Source: Candidatus Magasanikiibacteriota bacterium
GTDB taxonomy: Bacteria; Patescibacteriota; Patescibacteriia; Magasanikbacterales; 2-02-FULL-50-9b
Direction: 5' to 3'
Assembly: GCA_023246755.1 (NCBI GenBank)
Contig: JAHFHU010000002.1
Location: forward strand, 3,702 to 67,701
DNA length: 64,000 nt
The notes under the pieces are model-generated. The model saw only the letters and a program-made list of their open reading frames with translations, had not been told where the DNA came from and did no database searches. Shown here piece by piece: positions 9,458-33,691 of this stretch (the first letter of the stretch is position 1; the number at the start of each line of letters is the position of its first letter). The position numbers and the translations under genes were made by a program.

Positions 9458-10240
9458 ATGGAGGCTCCCATCGTCACGGCGTTGTACATGGTAGATAACT
9501 GGCTCGCACGGATTGGCAAAAAACAGAGCGATCTGATGCCCCACAACTGGAAGCGCCTCGCCGAAAACGCACTTTTCATGATGCAACTCGCTGGAGAGAC
9601 CGCTGATTCTCTGCTTGGGTTCGTGAACATGCACCGAGCACCAGAACAGACCGTGACTCTCAACCAACTGCGCAAAATGATCACGTCAGGAGACGATGGT
9701 GATTTGATGGCGCTGTGTACGGTCGCGTTCATGTGCAAGTTTGAACCACAAGCACTCTTTGTTTCTGACCTGAAAGCCAAGTTGGCCGAGTCCGCAAAGA
9801 CCGAGGCACTTCGCCTTGTCCAAGACATCACATTCAAGTCAAGCATCATCGGGGACATCCACAGTTGCCCCAAATGTGCGTTCATCCATAAGGAAATTGT
9901 TCCAGCCGCGAAGTTCTGTCCCCAGTGCGGCATGAGTCTCGCTACGGGCGTAGCACCGCAGGCGAACAATGTAGTCAACGCAGTGCGGATTCCGGTGGGT
10001 GATTCGCAAATGCCGCTGCTCGATCGCAGCTGCAATAGCCTTGAATTTTCGGTGCGTGTATGGAACTGCTTGCAAAATACCAATATACGCTTTGCTGGAG
10101 AGCTTGTGCAGAAAACCGAATCAGAGCTGTTGAAAATCGAAAATTTTGGCCGCGAGTCGCTCGGGGTAACCAAAGACGCGCTTGCGGAGCTGGGCCTCAC
10201 GCTCGACATGGACGTCCGCGGTTGGAAACCTCCGACCTGA
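9458..10240 (+). CDS. zinc-ribbon protein with RNA polymerase alpha-subunit C-terminal-domain (alpha-CTD)-like domain
   Basis: The C-terminal ~65 aa (LLDRSCNSLEFSVRVWNCLQNTNIRFAGELVQKTESELLKIENFGRESLGVTKDALAELGLTL) follows the helix-hairpin-helix alpha-CTD pattern. CPKC…CPQCG zinc ribbon. The N-terminal domain is unknown. Confidence 0.5.
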   Translation: MEAPIVTALYMVDNWLARIGKKQSDLMPHNWKRLAENALFMMQLAGETADSLLGFVNMHRAPEQTVTLNQLRKMITSGDDGDLMALCTVAFMCKFEPQALFVSDLKAKLAESAKTEALRLVQDITFKSSIIGDIHSCPKCAFIHKEIVPAAKFCPQCGMSLATGVAPQANNVVNAVRIPVGDSQMPLLDRSCNSLEFSVRVWNCLQNTNIRFAGELVQKTESELLKIENFGRESLGVTKDALAELGLTLDMDVRGWKPPT

Positions 10241-10264
10241 AACCACGGCTCAAACCCATCCCAA

Positions 10265-10307
10265 CCCACCGCATAGAGAATTGTCTCGTGCGGTGGGCTG
10301 TTTTTTT
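10265..10307. terminator. intrinsic terminator (bidirectional: A-run/T-run flanks)
   Basis: CCCACCGCA…TGCGGTGGG 9-bp stem followed by CTGTTTTTTT. Confidence 0.6.
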
Positions 10308-10527
10308 AAAAAAACAGTTCGGCACTCACGGGTGTACCCCTCCCTGGTACACCAGCAAACGCCGAACTTGGTTCAAGTTACCATTTATAAACACAGTAAG
10401 TCAAACGATATTGTCAAAAATATGTCTATACTACCGTATACAGTGTTGATAAACCTGTGGAAAAGTAGTGCATATCTGTGGAAAACTCAATGTTTTTCGA
10501 AGTTTTTAAAAATTGTACACGCTTTCG

Positions 10528-10556
10528 TTGACAAAATCGTTTTTTTATGGTATAGT
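10528..10556 (+). promoter_or_regulatory. consensus sigma70 promoter TTGACA-17-TATAGT with no ORF downstream
   Basis: cgTTGACAaaatcgtttttttatggTATAGTatc. Predicted TSS ~10563. Confidence 0.55.
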
Positions 10557-10562
10557 ATCTTC

Positions 10563-11020
10563 GTGCTCATGAAAGCTTGATCGAGTTACGGTCCGAGAGA
10601 CGCTGTAACTCTCGCTCTCATCACACACCCTATAACGACTTCCTCATCGGAAGATCAAAATAGTTCTTTTGCACGAGTTCCACCACATAGTTCTTTGCCC
10701 GCGCATTCGTCCATCGTTCACATTTCAAATCGTTCCACTTTTCTTTCAACGAGAAAGGCGTGAATACTGGTAGAACGGTCTTTCGAGACAGTTCCCACTC
10801 ACGATCCGGTGTTACCTCGCAAAATTATGAGGTCAATTAACACCACGCAGAAGGATTAGATGCGAACAACAACAACACAACCCGCAAGATCGATATCCTC
10901 GAGGTCGTCTCACGATGTACCTCAAGTAGTGTCCGTCTTGCACAAGGCTCGTGGCTCACCGATTAACTACATTGTTTCGGGTGATTGCCCGAGCCTTTGC
11001 TATTTTATACAGGTTTTTTA
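10563..11020 (+). ncRNA. candidate large ORF-less transcript (unassigned ncRNA or long leader)
   Basis: ~460 nt downstream of a consensus promoter with no ORF >60 aa. Local hairpins (GAGTTAC…GTAACTC, CTTCC-TCATC-GGAAG). It ends in a weak T-rich hairpin before the dksA promoter. Confidence 0.25.
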
Positions 11021-11038
11021 TTTTCGCCGCCGCTGGTG

Positions 11039-11067
11039 TTGACATGTGCCGCCGGTAAATCTATACT
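11039..11067 (+). promoter_or_regulatory. promoter TTGACA-17-TATACT for the dksA-like/lspA unit
   Basis: gtTTGACAtgtgccgccggtaaatcTATACTgc. Confidence 0.55.
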
Positions 11068-11098
11068 GCAGTAATATTCGTCATTTGTTGCGCGCATT

Positions 11099-11464
11099 AT
11101 GAACTCATCATTTTCAAAAGAATTTCTTGCAGAAACCAAAGAGACGCTTGAAAAACAAAAAATCCGCCTCGAGCGGCAAATTGGTGACCTCACCAACAAA
11201 GAAACCGGCTCAGCATTCCCGAGCTATGGCGAAGGTGAGGACGAAAGCGCCGAAGAAGTCGCGACATACGACGCGAATCTACAATTGCTCGATGCAAATC
11301 AGTCGGAATTGCGTGATGTCAATGAGTCAATGGTTCGTCTTGAAAAAGGAACCTACGGCATTTGCAAATATTGCAACAACCCCATTGACGAGCAGCGACT
11401 TCGGGCGCGCGCAACCTCGAGTTCGTGTGTGGCGTGCAAAAAAGCTTTAACGCAGGAGCTGTGA
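11099..11464 (+). CDS. DksA/TraR-family C4-type zinc-finger protein
   Basis: Coiled-coil N-terminus, then C-terminal GTYGICKYCNNPIDEQRLRARATSSSCVACKK C4 zinc finger as in DksA/TraR. Confidence 0.6.
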   Translation: MNSSFSKEFLAETKETLEKQKIRLERQIGDLTNKETGSAFPSYGEGEDESAEEVATYDANLQLLDANQSELRDVNESMVRLEKGTYGICKYCNNPIDEQRLRARATSSSCVACKKALTQEL

Positions 11465-11487
11465 CACAAACACGAAGGGGGGGAACA

Positions 11488-11913
11488 ATGTTACGTTTGG
11501 CGACGGCGGCAGGCCCAATTTTTTTGGTCGCAATCGACCGTTTGCTCAAGATGGCTGTCGAACAGCCTTTTTTTGATGGCAGTTCAGCCCGAATCGGCTG
11601 GCGATTTTTTGCATTTGAACGATTTCATAACAGCGGCGTCGCATTTGGCTTACCGGTTCCATTCTGGATCGTGTTGCCGCTCACCGCAGTTTTTCTTGTA
11701 TGGCTCGTCGTCTGGGCTCGACAAACGCGCGCACGTCACGCACACGCCGCGCTTGCTGCGATTTTTTTCGGCGCCGCATCCAACGCGTTTGATCGAATAA
11801 TGTATGGCTACACCATCGATTACCTCCGAATTATCGATAGCATCATCAACTGTGCAGACGTAATGATTGTGGGCGGGATTTTTTTGCTCATTTTTTATAA
11901 AAGACAAACGTAA
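11488..11913 (+). CDS. lspA: lipoprotein signal peptidase II
   Basis: Four TM segments. NSGVAFG and NAFDR…DY motifs of LspA. Start chosen at MLRLATAAGP. Confidence 0.7.
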   Translation: MLRLATAAGPIFLVAIDRLLKMAVEQPFFDGSSARIGWRFFAFERFHNSGVAFGLPVPFWIVLPLTAVFLVWLVVWARQTRARHAHAALAAIFFGAASNAFDRIMYGYTIDYLRIIDSIINCADVMIVGGIFLLIFYKRQT

Positions 11914-30513: not shown

Positions 30514-30663
30514 TTATTTTTCCGAAGAAACCGTGAGCTTCGTGCGGCCCTTTGTTCGGCGACGTGCCAAAACCTTACGGCCGTTTTTTGTGCTCATACG
30601 CTCGCGAAAACCGTGTGTTTTTGCGCGCTTTCGCTTCTTTGGTTGATATGTTCGCTTTGGCAT
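30514..30663 (-). CDS. rpmH: 50S ribosomal protein L34
   Basis: Hand-translated, it gives [49 protein letters not shown]. It is absent from the ORF track because it is under 60 aa. Confidence 0.9.
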
Positions 30664-30739
30664 AGTAATAAGTAGAAGGATTATAGCGGATTAGCTCAAT
30701 CTTGTCGACCCCCCAACACACCAAAGAGTTTTCAACAGA

Positions 30740-30778
30740 TTTTCCACAAGTTATACACAAAATATACACTTATCCACA
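30740..30778. promoter_or_regulatory. DnaA-box cluster upstream of dnaA (TTTTCCACA, TTATACACA, perfect TTATCCACA)
   Basis: Boxes at 30740-30748, 30751-30759 and 30770-30778, in the rpmH-dnaA intergenic region. Confidence 0.6.
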
Positions 30779-30822: not shown

Positions 30823-32301
30823 ATGACACCACACGAATTATGGCACGCCGTACTCGGCGAGCTCGAATTAACGCTAAGCCAAGCCAATTTTAAGACGTGG
30901 TTCGGACAATCACAGCTGCAGAGCTTTGAACATGGGTCAGTTACGATCACCGTTCCGAATGGGGTTGCAAAGCAATGGCTTGAAAACAAATATCAAAAAC
31001 AGATAATTCACTCCATTGAGCGAATTCTTGAGCAGCCTGTTCAAAAAATAATTTTCAAGATCGAATCGCCCGCAAAACCAAGCCTCGCTGGATTTATTTC
31101 TCAAGAAATTGCGCCGCCAGCACCAACACAAACGCAGCCGCAGCAAACCCAACAAAATCAATACTTTGCACCTACACAACCACAACAAAAATCTCAATTC
31201 ATCACGCGCGCCGATGCGCCGCCATCGATGCAAACAACGGTCACCGAACGCATCGAAGCAAAAAATAAGTTTGGTCTCAACCCGCGTTACACATTTGAAA
31301 CGTTCATTGTTGGCAAAACCAACGAACTCGCGCATGCGGCCGCACAAGCAATCGCAAATCGTCCGGGCGAGGTCTACAATCCGCTCTTCATATATGGTGG
31401 CGTTGGACTCGGAAAAACCCACCTTATCCAAGCGATCGGCAACCGAATCTCCGCAAACGACCCAAACGTTCGAATTCTCTACATCTCATCAGAACGCTTT
31501 ACCAATGAATTTGTTGCTGCAATTCGCTCGGGCAGCATTAAACAATTTAAGGAAACATACCGCGGCATAGACCTTCTCCTCATCGATGACATCCAATTTA
31601 TCGCGGGAAAAACCGAAACGCAAGAGGAGTTTTTTCACACATTTAACGAACTACACCAAGCAAATAAACAGATTGTGATGACCTCCGATCGTCCGCCCAA
31701 GGCAATTCCGGGTCTCGAAGATCGTCTCCGGTCACGTTTTGAGTGGGGCATGATTGCGGATGTTGCGTCACCGGACCTTGAAACACGTGTTGCGATTCTC
31801 GAGTCAAAATGCGCTGAAAAAAAATGCAGCCTTTCAAAAGAGCTTTTGCAAGTAATCGCAACGCTGGTTAAAAGCAACATCCGAGAACTCGAGGGCGCGC
31901 TCAATAAAATTCTCGCACACCATCAACTCCGCGGCGAAAGTCCCTCAGTTGATTCAGTCAAAACGCTTTTATCAAGCTATGATGAGCAATCGTACAGGAA
32001 ATCACTAACCCCAAAGGAGCTCACCACGATTGTTTCGCAATATTTCGACGTGAGTATTGATGAACTCATGAGCCCAAACCGAGAAAAACGACTTGCGTTT
32101 CCTCGTCAAATCATCATGTATCTCTTGCGTGAGGAGTTAAAGTGTTCATTTCCATCGATCGGGCAGGAACTTGGTGGCCGCGACCACACCACCGCGATGC
32201 ACGCGTACGAAAAAATTACGCGCGAGCTTGAAAATGATATGAAGCTCAAACAGGATATCGCGGCCATCCGCCAGCGGTTATACACAATTGCACATGGATA
32301 A
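30823..32301 (+). CDS. dnaA: chromosomal replication initiator protein DnaA
   Basis: AAA+ Walker A GGVGLGKTHL, sensor motifs, and C-terminal DNA-binding domain. Q/P-rich linker. Confidence 0.95.
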   Translation: MTPHELWHAVLGELELTLSQANFKTWFGQSQLQSFEHGSVTITVPNGVAKQWLENKYQKQIIHSIERILEQPVQKIIFKIESPAKPSLAGFISQEIAPPAPTQTQPQQTQQNQYFAPTQPQQKSQFITRADAPPSMQTTVTERIEAKNKFGLNPRYTFETFIVGKTNELAHAAAQAIANRPGEVYNPLFIYGGVGLGKTHLIQAIGNRISANDPNVRILYISSERFTNEFVAAIRSGSIKQFKETYRGIDLLLIDDIQFIAGKTETQEEFFHTFNELHQANKQIVMTSDRPPKAIPGLEDRLRSRFEWGMIADVASPDLETRVAILESKCAEKKCSLSKELLQVIATLVKSNIRELEGALNKILAHHQLRGESPSVDSVKTLLSSYDEQSYRKSLTPKELTTIVSQYFDVSIDELMSPNREKRLAFPRQIIMYLLREELKCSFPSIGQELGGRDHTTAMHAYEKITRELENDMKLKQDIAAIRQRLYTIAHG

Positions 32302-32575
32302 GTTGCGGATAGACTCTGGACAAGTTCTTTATAAGTTCCGCAAAACCTGTTACAAAGTACGTGGATATCGTGGTGGATAACTCGTATTTTATACACAGAA
32401 ACTCCACACGCAAATTGCATACACCAACATATACACCGTTCATGCGGAATTCACGCACAGGCGATGTGCACCGGTGGATTGTCTGTATAACCGCATGGTT
32501 GCGCGCTCAAAAAGGCCTTATCCACTTTTCCACCGCCCCTACTACTATTACTAGAAATACATAAAGAAACAGAAT
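32302..32575. other. predicted oriC: DnaA-box cluster plus AT-rich unwinding element in the dnaA-dnaN intergenic region
   Basis: GTGGATAAC (32373-32381), TTATACACA (32389-32397), TTATCCACT/TTTTCCACC (32518-32534), a TGGATAT-like box, and the AT-rich stretch CTACTACTATTACTAGAAATACATAAAGAAACAGAAT before dnaN. Confidence 0.6.
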
Positions 32576-33691
32576 ATGAAATTCACGTGTACTAAAGAAA
32601 ATTTTTTACAAGGAATTCAAGCAGTCTCTTCGATTACCGGAAAGCAAGTTCACTTACCGATACTCAACAACATTTTATTATTAGCAGAACCAACAGGTCT
32701 CAAAGCGATCGGAACAAATCTGGAACTTTCTATCGTTGCAACAATTCGTGGTAAGGTTGAGATTGCCGGAACCTTTACTGTTCCTGCTAAGATGCTCGTT
32801 GAATATATTTCGCTGCTTCCGAATGAAGCGCATATCGATTGTGAATTAGATGGCGTTGAGTTGATTTTGAAATCAGGTCGTCAGCGTACGAAAATGAAGG
32901 GCGCGCCTGCGACGGATTTCCCCGCTGTGCCGCCGGTTGAAAAAAACAATGAACTTGTTTTTCCCGCGGATCGTTTAAAGCGCGCGCTTCAACGTGTACT
33001 CATGTCGGTTTCGCACAGTGAAGTTCGACCAGAGCTGCAAGGTGTTCTGCTTTTTTCAGAAAATACGGATCAGTTGCGTGCGACGCTTGCTTCAACCGAT
33101 AGCTACCGTCTTTCGGAAGTGCACGTTGAATTACTCAATCAATCGAGTGTCGCGGTGCGCGTTATTATTCCGCAAAAAGCTGCACAGGAAATCCACAGAC
33201 TTCTCCCCAACTCAAATGAACCGACCGCTCTCGTGCTCGGCGAGGGTCAGATTTCATGTGTGATTGGCGACGTTCATCTTGTTTCGCGACTGATCGATGG
33301 GACTTATCCCGATTATCGACAGATTATCCCCAAGACATGGAATACTGAATTGAAAGCGCCTGTTGAAGAAACGCTCAAGGCGATTAAAGCCGCCTCACTT
33401 TTTGCAACACAGGGTGTGAGCGCGGTTTCGCTCGAGCTCAAACCAGCTTCGGAAATTCTCAACATCACATCCGCCTCAACGCAGGCTGGCGAACACTCGG
33501 CTGACATTTCGGTTGAAGGCGTCGGGGTTGATAATAAAGTTATTTTGAACCATCGTTTTTTGGTTGATGGGCTTTTGTCGGTCGACGATGAGCGGGTAAT
33601 TTTAAAAGTGGTGAATAGTGAGTCGCCGTGTTTGCTGCAACCGGAAAAAACAGATGATTATTTATATATCATCATGCCGATTCGCCAATAA
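32576..33691 (+). CDS. dnaN: DNA polymerase III subunit beta (sliding clamp)
   Basis: Three-domain clamp pattern. Immediately downstream of dnaA. Confidence 0.9.
   Translation: MKFTCTKENFLQGIQAVSSITGKQVHLPILNNILLLAEPTGLKAIGTNLELSIVATIRGKVEIAGTFTVPAKMLVEYISLLPNEAHIDCELDGVELILKSGRQRTKMKGAPATDFPAVPPVEKNNELVFPADRLKRALQRVLMSVSHSEVRPELQGVLLFSENTDQLRATLASTDSYRLSEVHVELLNQSSVAVRVIIPQKAAQEIHRLLPNSNEPTALVLGEGQISCVIGDVHLVSRLIDGTYPDYRQIIPKTWNTELKAPVEETLKAIKAASLFATQGVSAVSLELKPASEILNITSASTQAGEHSADISVEGVGVDNKVILNHRFLVDGLLSVDDERVILKVVNSESPCLLQPEKTDDYLYIIMPIRQ

Follow-up and report, generated by a model that had tools for sequence, protein, structure and literature searches.

An 860-bp gap poor in open reading frames (ORFs), upstream of a dksA-like gene in a Candidatus Magasanikiibacteriota bacterium, probably is a stand-alone gene for a multi-helix RNA of about 450 nucleotides (nt) that belongs to no described family. 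The RNA probably acts in trans and is probably regulated by DnaA. The gap lies between a gene for a 260-amino-acid (aa) protein, which ends at 10240, and the dksA-like gene, which starts at 11099; coordinates are those of the window, the whole 64,000-nt stretch of contig JAHFHU010000002.1 that was analyzed. A palindrome, three DnaA boxes in the same orientation, a promoter, the RNA, and a terminator form a module present in most of the sampled species of Magasanikbacteria, and this module persists where another gene stands before dksA. A sequence-only reading of the gap had put forward three candidates, i.e., a large noncoding RNA (ncRNA), a datA-like region that titrates DnaA or is otherwise regulatory, and a degraded gene. 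All the elements listed in that reading are present, displaced by 1 nt at most.

Transcription unit and secondary structure

The ncRNA is predicted to run from 10563 to 11010 on the plus strand, about 450 nt, with a transcription start site placed ~7 nt after the −10 element and a 3' end placed in a U-rich tract. The consensus promoter noted earlier, here called P1 (10528 to 10556, plus strand), has the form TTGACA-17-TATAGT, agrees with the sigma-70 consensus at 11 of 12 positions, and carries a TG extension before the −10. Its sequence TTGACA...TATGGTATAGT is invariant in close relatives, and the consensus in a wider profile of related loci is TTGACA...TG.TATA.T. At the other end lies the terminator domain, H6 (10945 to 11010, plus strand), in which a closing stem, AGGCTCG/CGAGCCT, and an inner stem, CACCGA/TCGGGTG, are followed by the U-rich tract TTTGCTATTTT; a terminator-like match falls at 10976 to 10993. 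Both the sigma-70 promoter and the intrinsic terminator are conserved, and together they delimit a stand-alone transcription unit. Within the bounds of the gap there is no ORF of more than 60 aa, in keeping with the earlier impression that it holds no convincing one, and the sole ORF of 60 aa (10860 to 11042) does not keep its frame in relatives. The identification of 10563 to 11010 as an RNA gene rather than a protein gene is strongly supported by these features together with the conservation and compensatory changes described below.

The region 10563 to 11010 folds at −135 kcal/mol, with z = −5.1 compared to shuffled sequences on the plus strand and z = −3.5 on the minus strand. The helices proposed for the plus strand are, from the 5' end, Ha (10583-91/10603-11), Hb (10639-43/10649-53), a tentative long-range helix of 12 bp, H1 (10661-72/10847-58, pairing UAGUUCUUUUGC with GCAGAAGGAUUA), H2 (10742-47/10753-58), H3 (10759-63/10799-803), H3b with a UUCG loop (10773-81/10786-94), H4 (10808-14/10838-44), H4b (10815-18/10829-32), the long hairpin H5 (10884-10941), and H6. 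Among the best supported are H3b, H4, H4b, and H5, and the sequence of H4 and H4b reads CCGGUGUUA-CCUC...GAGG...UAACACC. Compensatory changes in H6 replace GGCUCG/CGAGCC by GGGGCG/CGCCCC or GGCGCG/CGCGCC, and CACC/GGUG by CGCC/GGCG.

The related RNAs were treated as a smaller subgroup, A, which includes the window, and a larger subgroup, B. Covariation in subgroup A was counted on 11 sequences aligned with MAFFT, two of which came from a pattern scan of metagenomes, with the structure drawn on the window sequence. With the caveat that these sequences are related, 85% of the cells are paired, compared to 36 to 51% when the 3' partners are slid, and 26 of the 89 pairs have changes on both sides, compared to 10 to 18 in the slid controls and a mean of 13 in shuffles. 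For subgroup B, eight B1 sequences and a structure drawn by hand served to build a covariance model (R1) of a 153-nt core, and this model finds the core in 28 loci (B1 or B2) at E<0.01. Here, 91% of the cells are paired, compared to 36 to 45% when slid, and both sides are changed in 35 of 43 pairs, a figure inflated by the use of a model-fitted alignment even though the margin is large. In both subgroups, then, helices are kept by compensatory substitutions beyond the controls, as is typical of a structured ncRNA. The plus strand is taken to be the transcribed one because many of the conserved pairs are G-U, which the complementary strand would turn into A-C. The motif GTTC occurs 6 times in the window RNA, compared to 1.8 expected, and 15 of 2000 shuffles reach 6.

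Upstream module

The module opens with an operator-like palindrome at 10424 to 10443 (TATAC-N4-GTATA), which falls in the conserved block TATACTACCGTATACAG and has TTGTATA-N8-TATACAA as its counterpart in the larger subgroup. In the profile of related loci, the palindrome consensus TTTGTATA.ACTA.TCTATACAA directly precedes the DnaA boxes. The three boxes of the window, at 10445 to 10485, all have the same orientation and read on the minus strand: TGTTGATAA at 10445 to 10453, TGTGGAAAA at 10456 to 10464, and TGTGGAAAA again at 10477 to 10485. The last two had been picked out as direct repeats resembling DnaA boxes. They lie in direct repeats of CTGTGGAAAA (10455 to 10464 and 10476 to 10485) and fit the relaxed box TTWTNCACA perfectly; the box at 10445 to 10453 has 1 mismatch. 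As read from the sequence, the boxes start 11 and 21 bp apart, and therefore all three lie on one face of the helix. Perfect boxes, TGTGGATAA (= TTATCCACA), are found at the same place in relatives, so that the site has at least two clustered, conserved boxes matching TTWTNCACA or TTATCCACA.

When orthologous regions were examined, nearly all of the ~85 loci had DnaA boxes upstream of dksA at a distance of several hundred nt; most of the boxes lie between −570 and −870, and mostly in the orientation seen in the window. The 64-kb window has only three DnaA-box clusters, the other two being at dnaA/oriC; because of this, and because the layout is conserved in dozens of species, the arrangement is more than chance. 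From their sequence and conservation, the repeats at 10456 to 10485 are real DnaA boxes that belong to a module upstream of the RNA promoter. A role of DnaA in transcription control would fit them at least as well as titration. The proposal of a datA-like or otherwise regulatory region is thus partly supported.

Variations on the module were seen in several relatives. Locus L046 has a 22-bp palindrome, TTGTATACACTAGTGTATACAA, on each side of its DnaA boxes, perfect at 2358 to 2380 and with one change at 2458 to 2481, where it abuts the −35. An imperfect third copy (2540 to 2565) falls within the first ~50 nt of the RNA, in which it would also form a hairpin. The three copies suggest a repressor with three operators. 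In five species (L071, L077, L081, L084, and L089) the box triplet is duplicated, e.g., at −1002/−990/−970 and −823/−811/−791 upstream of dksA in L071.

Conservation and distribution

An ORF-free region of 700 to 1060 bp lies directly upstream of dksA in relatives with DksA identities to the window of 49 to 89% (L004, 89%; L006, 79%; L007, 75%; L009, 72%; L010, 57%; L011, 49%). The region is kept despite differing upstream neighbors, with a UPF0020 methylase gene in L004, L006, and L007 and other genes in L010 and L011. In L009 the upstream neighbor is an FAD oxidase gene, and there is a tRNA-like stretch inside the gap; L009 and L017 are the same contig, and ARAGORN calls a tRNA-Met in L017. 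The alignment of the gaps has invariant blocks after P1, for example, TAACACCACGCAGAAGGAT, ACCTCAAGTAGTGTCCG, and GCGTGAATACTGGTA, up to the common terminator. Over the 3' 270 nt of the RNA, nucleotide identity to L004, L006, and L007 is 82 to 90%, compared to 73 to 79% for dksA, 65 to 69% for lspA, 70 to 73% for comM, and 68 to 72% for the UPF0020 gene. The region is thus present and conserved in relatives, and no conserved small protein was found in it. The candidate of a large ncRNA is strongly supported, by conservation above that of the neighboring genes, compensatory changes, a promoter with a terminator, and the lack of a conserved ORF.

A scan with a DksA alignment against one genome per species of the GTDB returned 80 dksA loci, the majority labelled Magasanikbacteria or Patescibacteria. 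Many GTDB-representative metagenome-assembled genomes with a Magasanikbacteria-type dksA locus (L016, L019, L024, L028, and others) are titled “uncultured Gammaproteobacteria,” one is titled “Candidatus Udaeobacter,” and one is titled “Saccharibacteria”; these titles are evidently mislabelled. An iterated nhmmer profile seeded from the window RNA gathered 10 loci only, which are those of subgroup A, and the pattern scan of metagenomes yielded the two new subgroup A sequences, plus duplicates and a chance match (L095). Starting from L046, an iterated profile reaches 83 of the 87 upstream regions, which are mostly from Candidatus Magasanikbacteria, with matches over about 600 positions. The order of elements in this profile is a palindrome; the DnaA boxes TGTGGATAA, TGTG.ATAA, and GTGGATAA; a second palindrome; a promoter, TTGACA-17-TG.TATA.T; the RNA, which begins with the hairpin tgTAGTTC.TT..ACAA; a terminator, GGCG...CGCCTTTTTT; and a further promoter, TTGAC-17-TATAAT. 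The window matches the profile at 10402 to 10681, which takes in the palindrome, the boxes, the promoter, and a G(U/C)UCNUU motif. RNA length ranges from about 285 to 600 nt across the loci, and G[UAC]UCNUU falls within the first 45 nt in 46 of 54 subgroup B RNAs.

Covariance models do not join the subgroups. The core model R1 matches neither subgroup A nor B3, and a model of the H3-H4 domain of subgroup A (R2) matches subgroup A only, even with the filters off on 15 B3 loci. We speak of one family because the placement is identical and because the upstream module, the 5' G(U/C)UCNUU motif, and the terminator are shared; on the sequences at hand, homology of the RNA bodies between the subgroups is unproven. 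The RNA gene is split between two Logan contigs of the same organism, L003, which ends at window position 10776, and L002, which starts at 10840; the break at 10777 to 10839 is probably an assembly or coverage effect.

Known RNA families

By all the searches made, the RNA belongs to no described family and is absent from Rfam. With the 4227 models of Rfam 15 at gathering thresholds, only tRNAs were found in the window and in 20 related loci. At permissive settings (E≤10 for the window region and E≤5 for ten diverse loci), there were scattered chance matches, none of which recurred in the RNA region. No tmRNA was called by ARAGORN in the window or in 60 related loci. The hallmarks of RNase P RNA (P1 end pairing, the P4 pseudoknot, CR-I, and CR-V) are absent by inspection, and there is no weak Rfam match to it; the 5' end of the window RNA is a local hairpin, the 3' end is the terminator, and the two ends do not pair. 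Inspection of sequences and folds revealed no T-arm, CCA, acceptor stem, or helix-8 motif of the signal recognition particle (SRP) RNA. The rod of about 180 nt with a central bubble that marks 6S RNA is not seen either, the fold being multi-domain with junctions, and no 6S model of Rfam matches. A literature search on ncRNAs of Magasanikbacteria, Patescibacteria, or the candidate phyla radiation (CPR), and on DnaA boxes together with an ncRNA and dksA, found no description of such an RNA.

Two further ideas were dropped. The string UAGAUG...ACAxAACCCG of the window, compared by eye with CR-IV/CR-V of RNase P RNA, is not conserved even in L004 and L013. Pairing of the RNA with the 5' region of dnaA amounts, by eye, to only 5 to 6 bp.

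Alternative explanations

One rival reading is that the transcript is a long 5' leader of the dksA-lspA operon, similar to a riboswitch or attenuator, with its terminator acting as a regulated switch for read-through from P1. The RNA does lie directly upstream of dksA and on the same strand in most loci, with the terminator 89 nt before the start codon, and some relatives carry a further terminator-like hairpin in the dksA 5' untranslated region (UTR). The 3' strand of H6 can join alternative pairings, as an antiterminator would require, but these are possible in some sequences only and without clear conservation. A size of 285 to 600 nt with several domains is large for a leader, and no known riboswitch or T-box model matches. 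In a leader the terminator should stand directly before the regulated ORF, with no promoter or gene between; here a promoter lies between them, and in some species a gene as well. A promoter of the dksA-like gene itself, P2 (11039 to 11067, plus strand), had been proposed before and is confirmed as TTGACA-17-TATACT, a match at 11 of 12 positions. It sits between the RNA terminator and dksA, is kept as TTGAC-17-TATAAT in the profile of related loci, and is, together with P1, one of the two best promoter-like sites of the neighborhood in a pattern scan. Moreover, an extra ORF of 76 to 164 aa lies between an intact RNA module and dksA in four species (L023, L066, L067, and L073). Because another gene separates the RNA from dksA in these species, we regard the RNA as an independent gene and not a leader, and the conserved P2 and the intervening ORFs together favor a stand-alone, trans-acting RNA; a leader is quite unlikely. 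A very divergent housekeeping RNA (RNase P RNA, tmRNA, SRP RNA, or an RNA of the 6S/Ms1 type) that the models miss in CPR bacteria strikes us as more doubtful still. The strong promoter like those of stable RNAs, the length of 300 to 450 nt, and the phylum-wide conservation would suit such an RNA, neighbors related to RNA polymerase would suit a 6S/Ms1-like role, and the rest of the 64-kb window yields none of these RNAs, although a window of this size is not expected to contain them anyway. Against this, there is no Rfam match even at E≤5 to 10 in the window or in 10 diverse homologs, ARAGORN is negative for tmRNA throughout, and, by our own reading, the unpaired ends and the lack of a T-arm/CCA, CR-I/CR-V, SRP helix 8, or 6S-like rod speak for none of them. 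The idea of a degraded gene, or of a small-protein gene such as the 60-aa ORF at 10860 to 11042 with its GAAGGA Shine-Dalgarno-like sequence, is scarcely credible. Several close relatives do keep an ATG preceded by GAAGGATTAG, and ORFs of 25 to 60 aa exist. Yet close relatives differ by indels of 1 to 2 nt that change the frame. In L004 a stop is reached after 21 codons, the conserved CCTCGAGGTC block does not stay in one frame, and the ATG is lost in L014 and L094. Peptides translated from stop to stop have nothing in common between the subgroups, and within subgroup A all frames look equally “conserved.” Conservation is blockwise, shows no 3-nt periodicity, and goes along with compensatory pairs, which disposes of the degraded-gene candidate.

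Two other explanations place the function in the DNA. The DnaA-box cluster could control initiation by titration or through the nucleotide state of DnaA, as do datA, DARS, and the clusters of Bacillus, in which case the adjacent strong transcription would modulate the cluster or be incidental. The three boxes in one orientation and on one helical face, about 20 kb from oriC (the cluster is at 10445 to 10485), the perfect consensus boxes in relatives, the duplication of the cluster in five species, and the variable distance from boxes to promoter all favor such a unit. DARS requires boxes I and II in opposite orientations, and datA requires an IHF site; the three window boxes have the same orientation, as do most of those in relatives. 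A DNA unit leaves roughly 450 nt of conserved, covarying downstream sequence unexplained, and the boxes always accompany the RNA promoter, even with dksA displaced. We consider it unlikely as the whole explanation, and it is compatible with an RNA gene. That the module is oriC itself or part of a bipartite origin is very improbable. A cluster of DnaA boxes is present, and in close relatives the genes diverge from it, with UPF0020-S15-PNPase on the minus strand and dksA-lspA-comM on the plus strand. However, the orientation is not divergent in L011, and the window has an origin region elsewhere: rpmH (minus strand, about 30530 to 30664 by our own reading of the sequence), dnaA (30823 to 32301), and dnaN (32576 to 33691), with three DnaA boxes at 30740 to 30778 and further ones at 32278 to 32397. 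The cumulative GC skew has its minimum at about 32 to 34 kb and no turn at 10.4 kb. An origin at 10.4 kb was rejected on these grounds.

Proposed role

The reading that we prefer remains that of a stand-alone RNA gene, with some points weighing against it. The start site, the 3' end, and the abundance of the ncRNA are all derived from sequence, and our results point to no protein partner or target of the RNA. The long-range helix H1 shows one-sided changes only, and the count of double changes in subgroup B is, as stated, inflated. The RNA body of the window, with its subgroup of 11 sequences, is linked to the larger subgroup by neither nhmmer nor the covariance models. The distance from the boxes to the −35 is 42 nt in the window and about 70 to 160 nt elsewhere, and with such variation the boxes may serve a purpose other than promoter control.

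In the mechanism that we propose, DnaA on the upstream boxes and a dimeric factor on the TGTATA...TATACA palindrome would set transcription of the RNA; this is the simplest reading of the boxes. The level of the RNA would thereby be tied to the replication-initiation state of the cell. The RNA would be made abundantly and act in trans; its repeated G(U/C)UCNUU motifs and conserved junctions may let it serve as a protein scaffold or decoy. It is a speculation, hinted at by the near-constant neighborhood of DksA, a factor that binds RNA polymerase, that it may act on the transcription machinery or on growth-rate control. A still more specific version seems to us rather improbable. In it, the RNA would be a new class particular to Magasanikbacteria and related CPR bacteria, its synthesis would be switched by DnaA so as to read out the replication-initiation state, and it would target the transcription machinery jointly with the DksA-family factor or alongside it, as a functional analog of 6S/Ms1 with an unrelated fold. 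If true, this would couple replication of the chromosome to transcription at large in bacteria whose regulatory repertoires are minimal.

A large part of bacterial diversity belongs to the CPR, or Patescibacteria, whose genomes are tiny and whose RNAs are almost uncharacterized. The RNA described here is a candidate for a new family of large structured ncRNAs with a conserved DnaA-box module, spread through a CPR lineage. An RNA of ~450 nt that is better conserved than the neighboring housekeeping genes, has a consensus promoter, and is found in the majority of the species sampled is likely to have a central task. Large structured RNAs without a known function are rare and have repeatedly turned out to be ribozymes, scaffolds of ribonucleoproteins, or unusual assemblies. 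The DnaA boxes with the palindrome offer a concrete regulatory hypothesis, and the link to a DksA-family gene offers a start for finding partners. If control by DnaA is borne out, the direct wiring of a large ncRNA to the replication initiator would, as far as we know, be unusual.

Neighboring genes

The conserved downstream neighbor of the RNA is a DksA/TraR-family zinc-finger gene (11099 to 11464, plus strand; 121 aa; Pfam zf-dskA_traR), immediately upstream of lspA (Pfam Peptidase_A8), which is followed by a comM-like Mg-chelatase gene. The dksA-lspA pair spans 11099 to 11913. Bacillus subtilis has the same gene order, ylyA-lspA, and this shared order suggests an old linkage of both genes. 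In L046, at 2886 to 2957, the promoter-like site of dksA found in its subgroup is followed by a hairpin, CAGTCGCTCCGACTG, and then CTTTATTTTTT, at about 24 nt from the dksA start. This terminator-like element lies in the dksA 5' UTR and may be an attenuator; the window has no equivalent.

On the other side of the gap, the sole Pfam match of the 260-aa product (gene at 9458 to 10240, plus strand) is to the C-terminal domain of the RNA polymerase alpha subunit (alpha-CTD), at residues 184 to 243. The protein has a CxxC...CxxC zinc ribbon at about residues 136 to 157, and its N-terminal part is of no known kind. A homolog search found no full-length homolog outside the source organism, and the other matches share the CTD only, some of them being a CTD fused to TPR repeats. 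The terminator ascribed earlier to this gene is confirmed at 10262 to 10307 (plus strand) as inverted repeat I4, 10262-10273/10289-10300 (12 nt, 92%), followed by T7. Judging from gene order, the alpha-CTD gene and its terminator are an insertion particular to the window lineage, between the UPF0020 gene and the RNA module, since the gene is missing from L004, L006, and L007, where the UPF0020 methylase gene is the immediate upstream neighbor of the module.

Between this terminator and the module lies a hairpin with 23-bp arms (inverted repeat I1, 10316 to 10368, minus strand), with the loop CCTCCCT on the plus strand and AGGGAGG on the minus strand. On the minus strand it contains a terminator-like match (10338 to 10321) and is followed by a T-run, UGUUUUUUU, to ~10305. 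Its core, ACGGGTGTACCCCTCC.TGG.ACACC, is nearly invariant in L004, L006, L007, and L009, and the hairpin is limited to subgroup A. It looks like a minus-strand terminator-like element or a hairpin RNA of ~60 nt. In relatives it stands ahead of the UPF0020 start and could be a leader or attenuator there; in the window the alpha-CTD insertion cuts it off from the UPF0020 gene, and it is kept nonetheless. By eye, the only candidate for a minus-strand promoter feeding it is a conserved TTGAC at ~10397 to 10402, without a good −10, which might be its −35.

Comparison with known systems

Like datA, DARS1/2, and the DnaA-box clusters (DBCs) of B. subtilis, the module has consensus-like DnaA boxes clustered in an intergenic region away from oriC, and like the DnaA-regulated promoters of dnaA, nrdAB, and sda, it has them upstream of a promoter. 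It differs from all of these in that the downstream gene is a large ncRNA and in that the boxes are flanked by a palindromic operator.

The ylyA-lspA locus of B. subtilis is similar in that a DksA-family gene directly precedes lspA and that the same strand carries a long structured RNA element farther upstream. YlyA is DksA-like, and ylyA-lspA is preceded by ileS with a T-box leader. The window differs in having no T-box match and no ileS, and its RNA has its own terminator, after which comes the separate promoter of dksA.

The likeness to 6S and Ms1 RNAs is that the window RNA is probably abundant, stable, and stand-alone, and the size of Ms1, about 300 nt, is similar. Beyond this, the likeness is one of neighborhood, with a DksA-family gene in most species and an alpha-CTD gene in the window. 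Unlike 6S RNA, the window RNA lacks a rod-like hairpin with a central bubble and an Rfam match, and its link to RNA polymerase lies in the adjacent genes.

The OLE, ROOL, GOLLD, raiA, and HEARO RNAs (RF01071, RF03087, RF01998, RF03072, and RF02033, respectively), large structured bacterial ncRNAs whose functions are obscure or have only lately begun to emerge, are likewise several hundred nt long, with many helices supported by covariation, and they share with the window RNA a restriction to one lineage, a promoter and terminator of their own, and a lack of coding capacity. The window RNA fits none of their models and, unlike them, occurs in CPR bacteria. It also differs in its conserved module of DnaA boxes and palindrome and in almost always adjoining dksA; we know of no description of such an upstream module, or of adjacency to dksA, for any of these five families.

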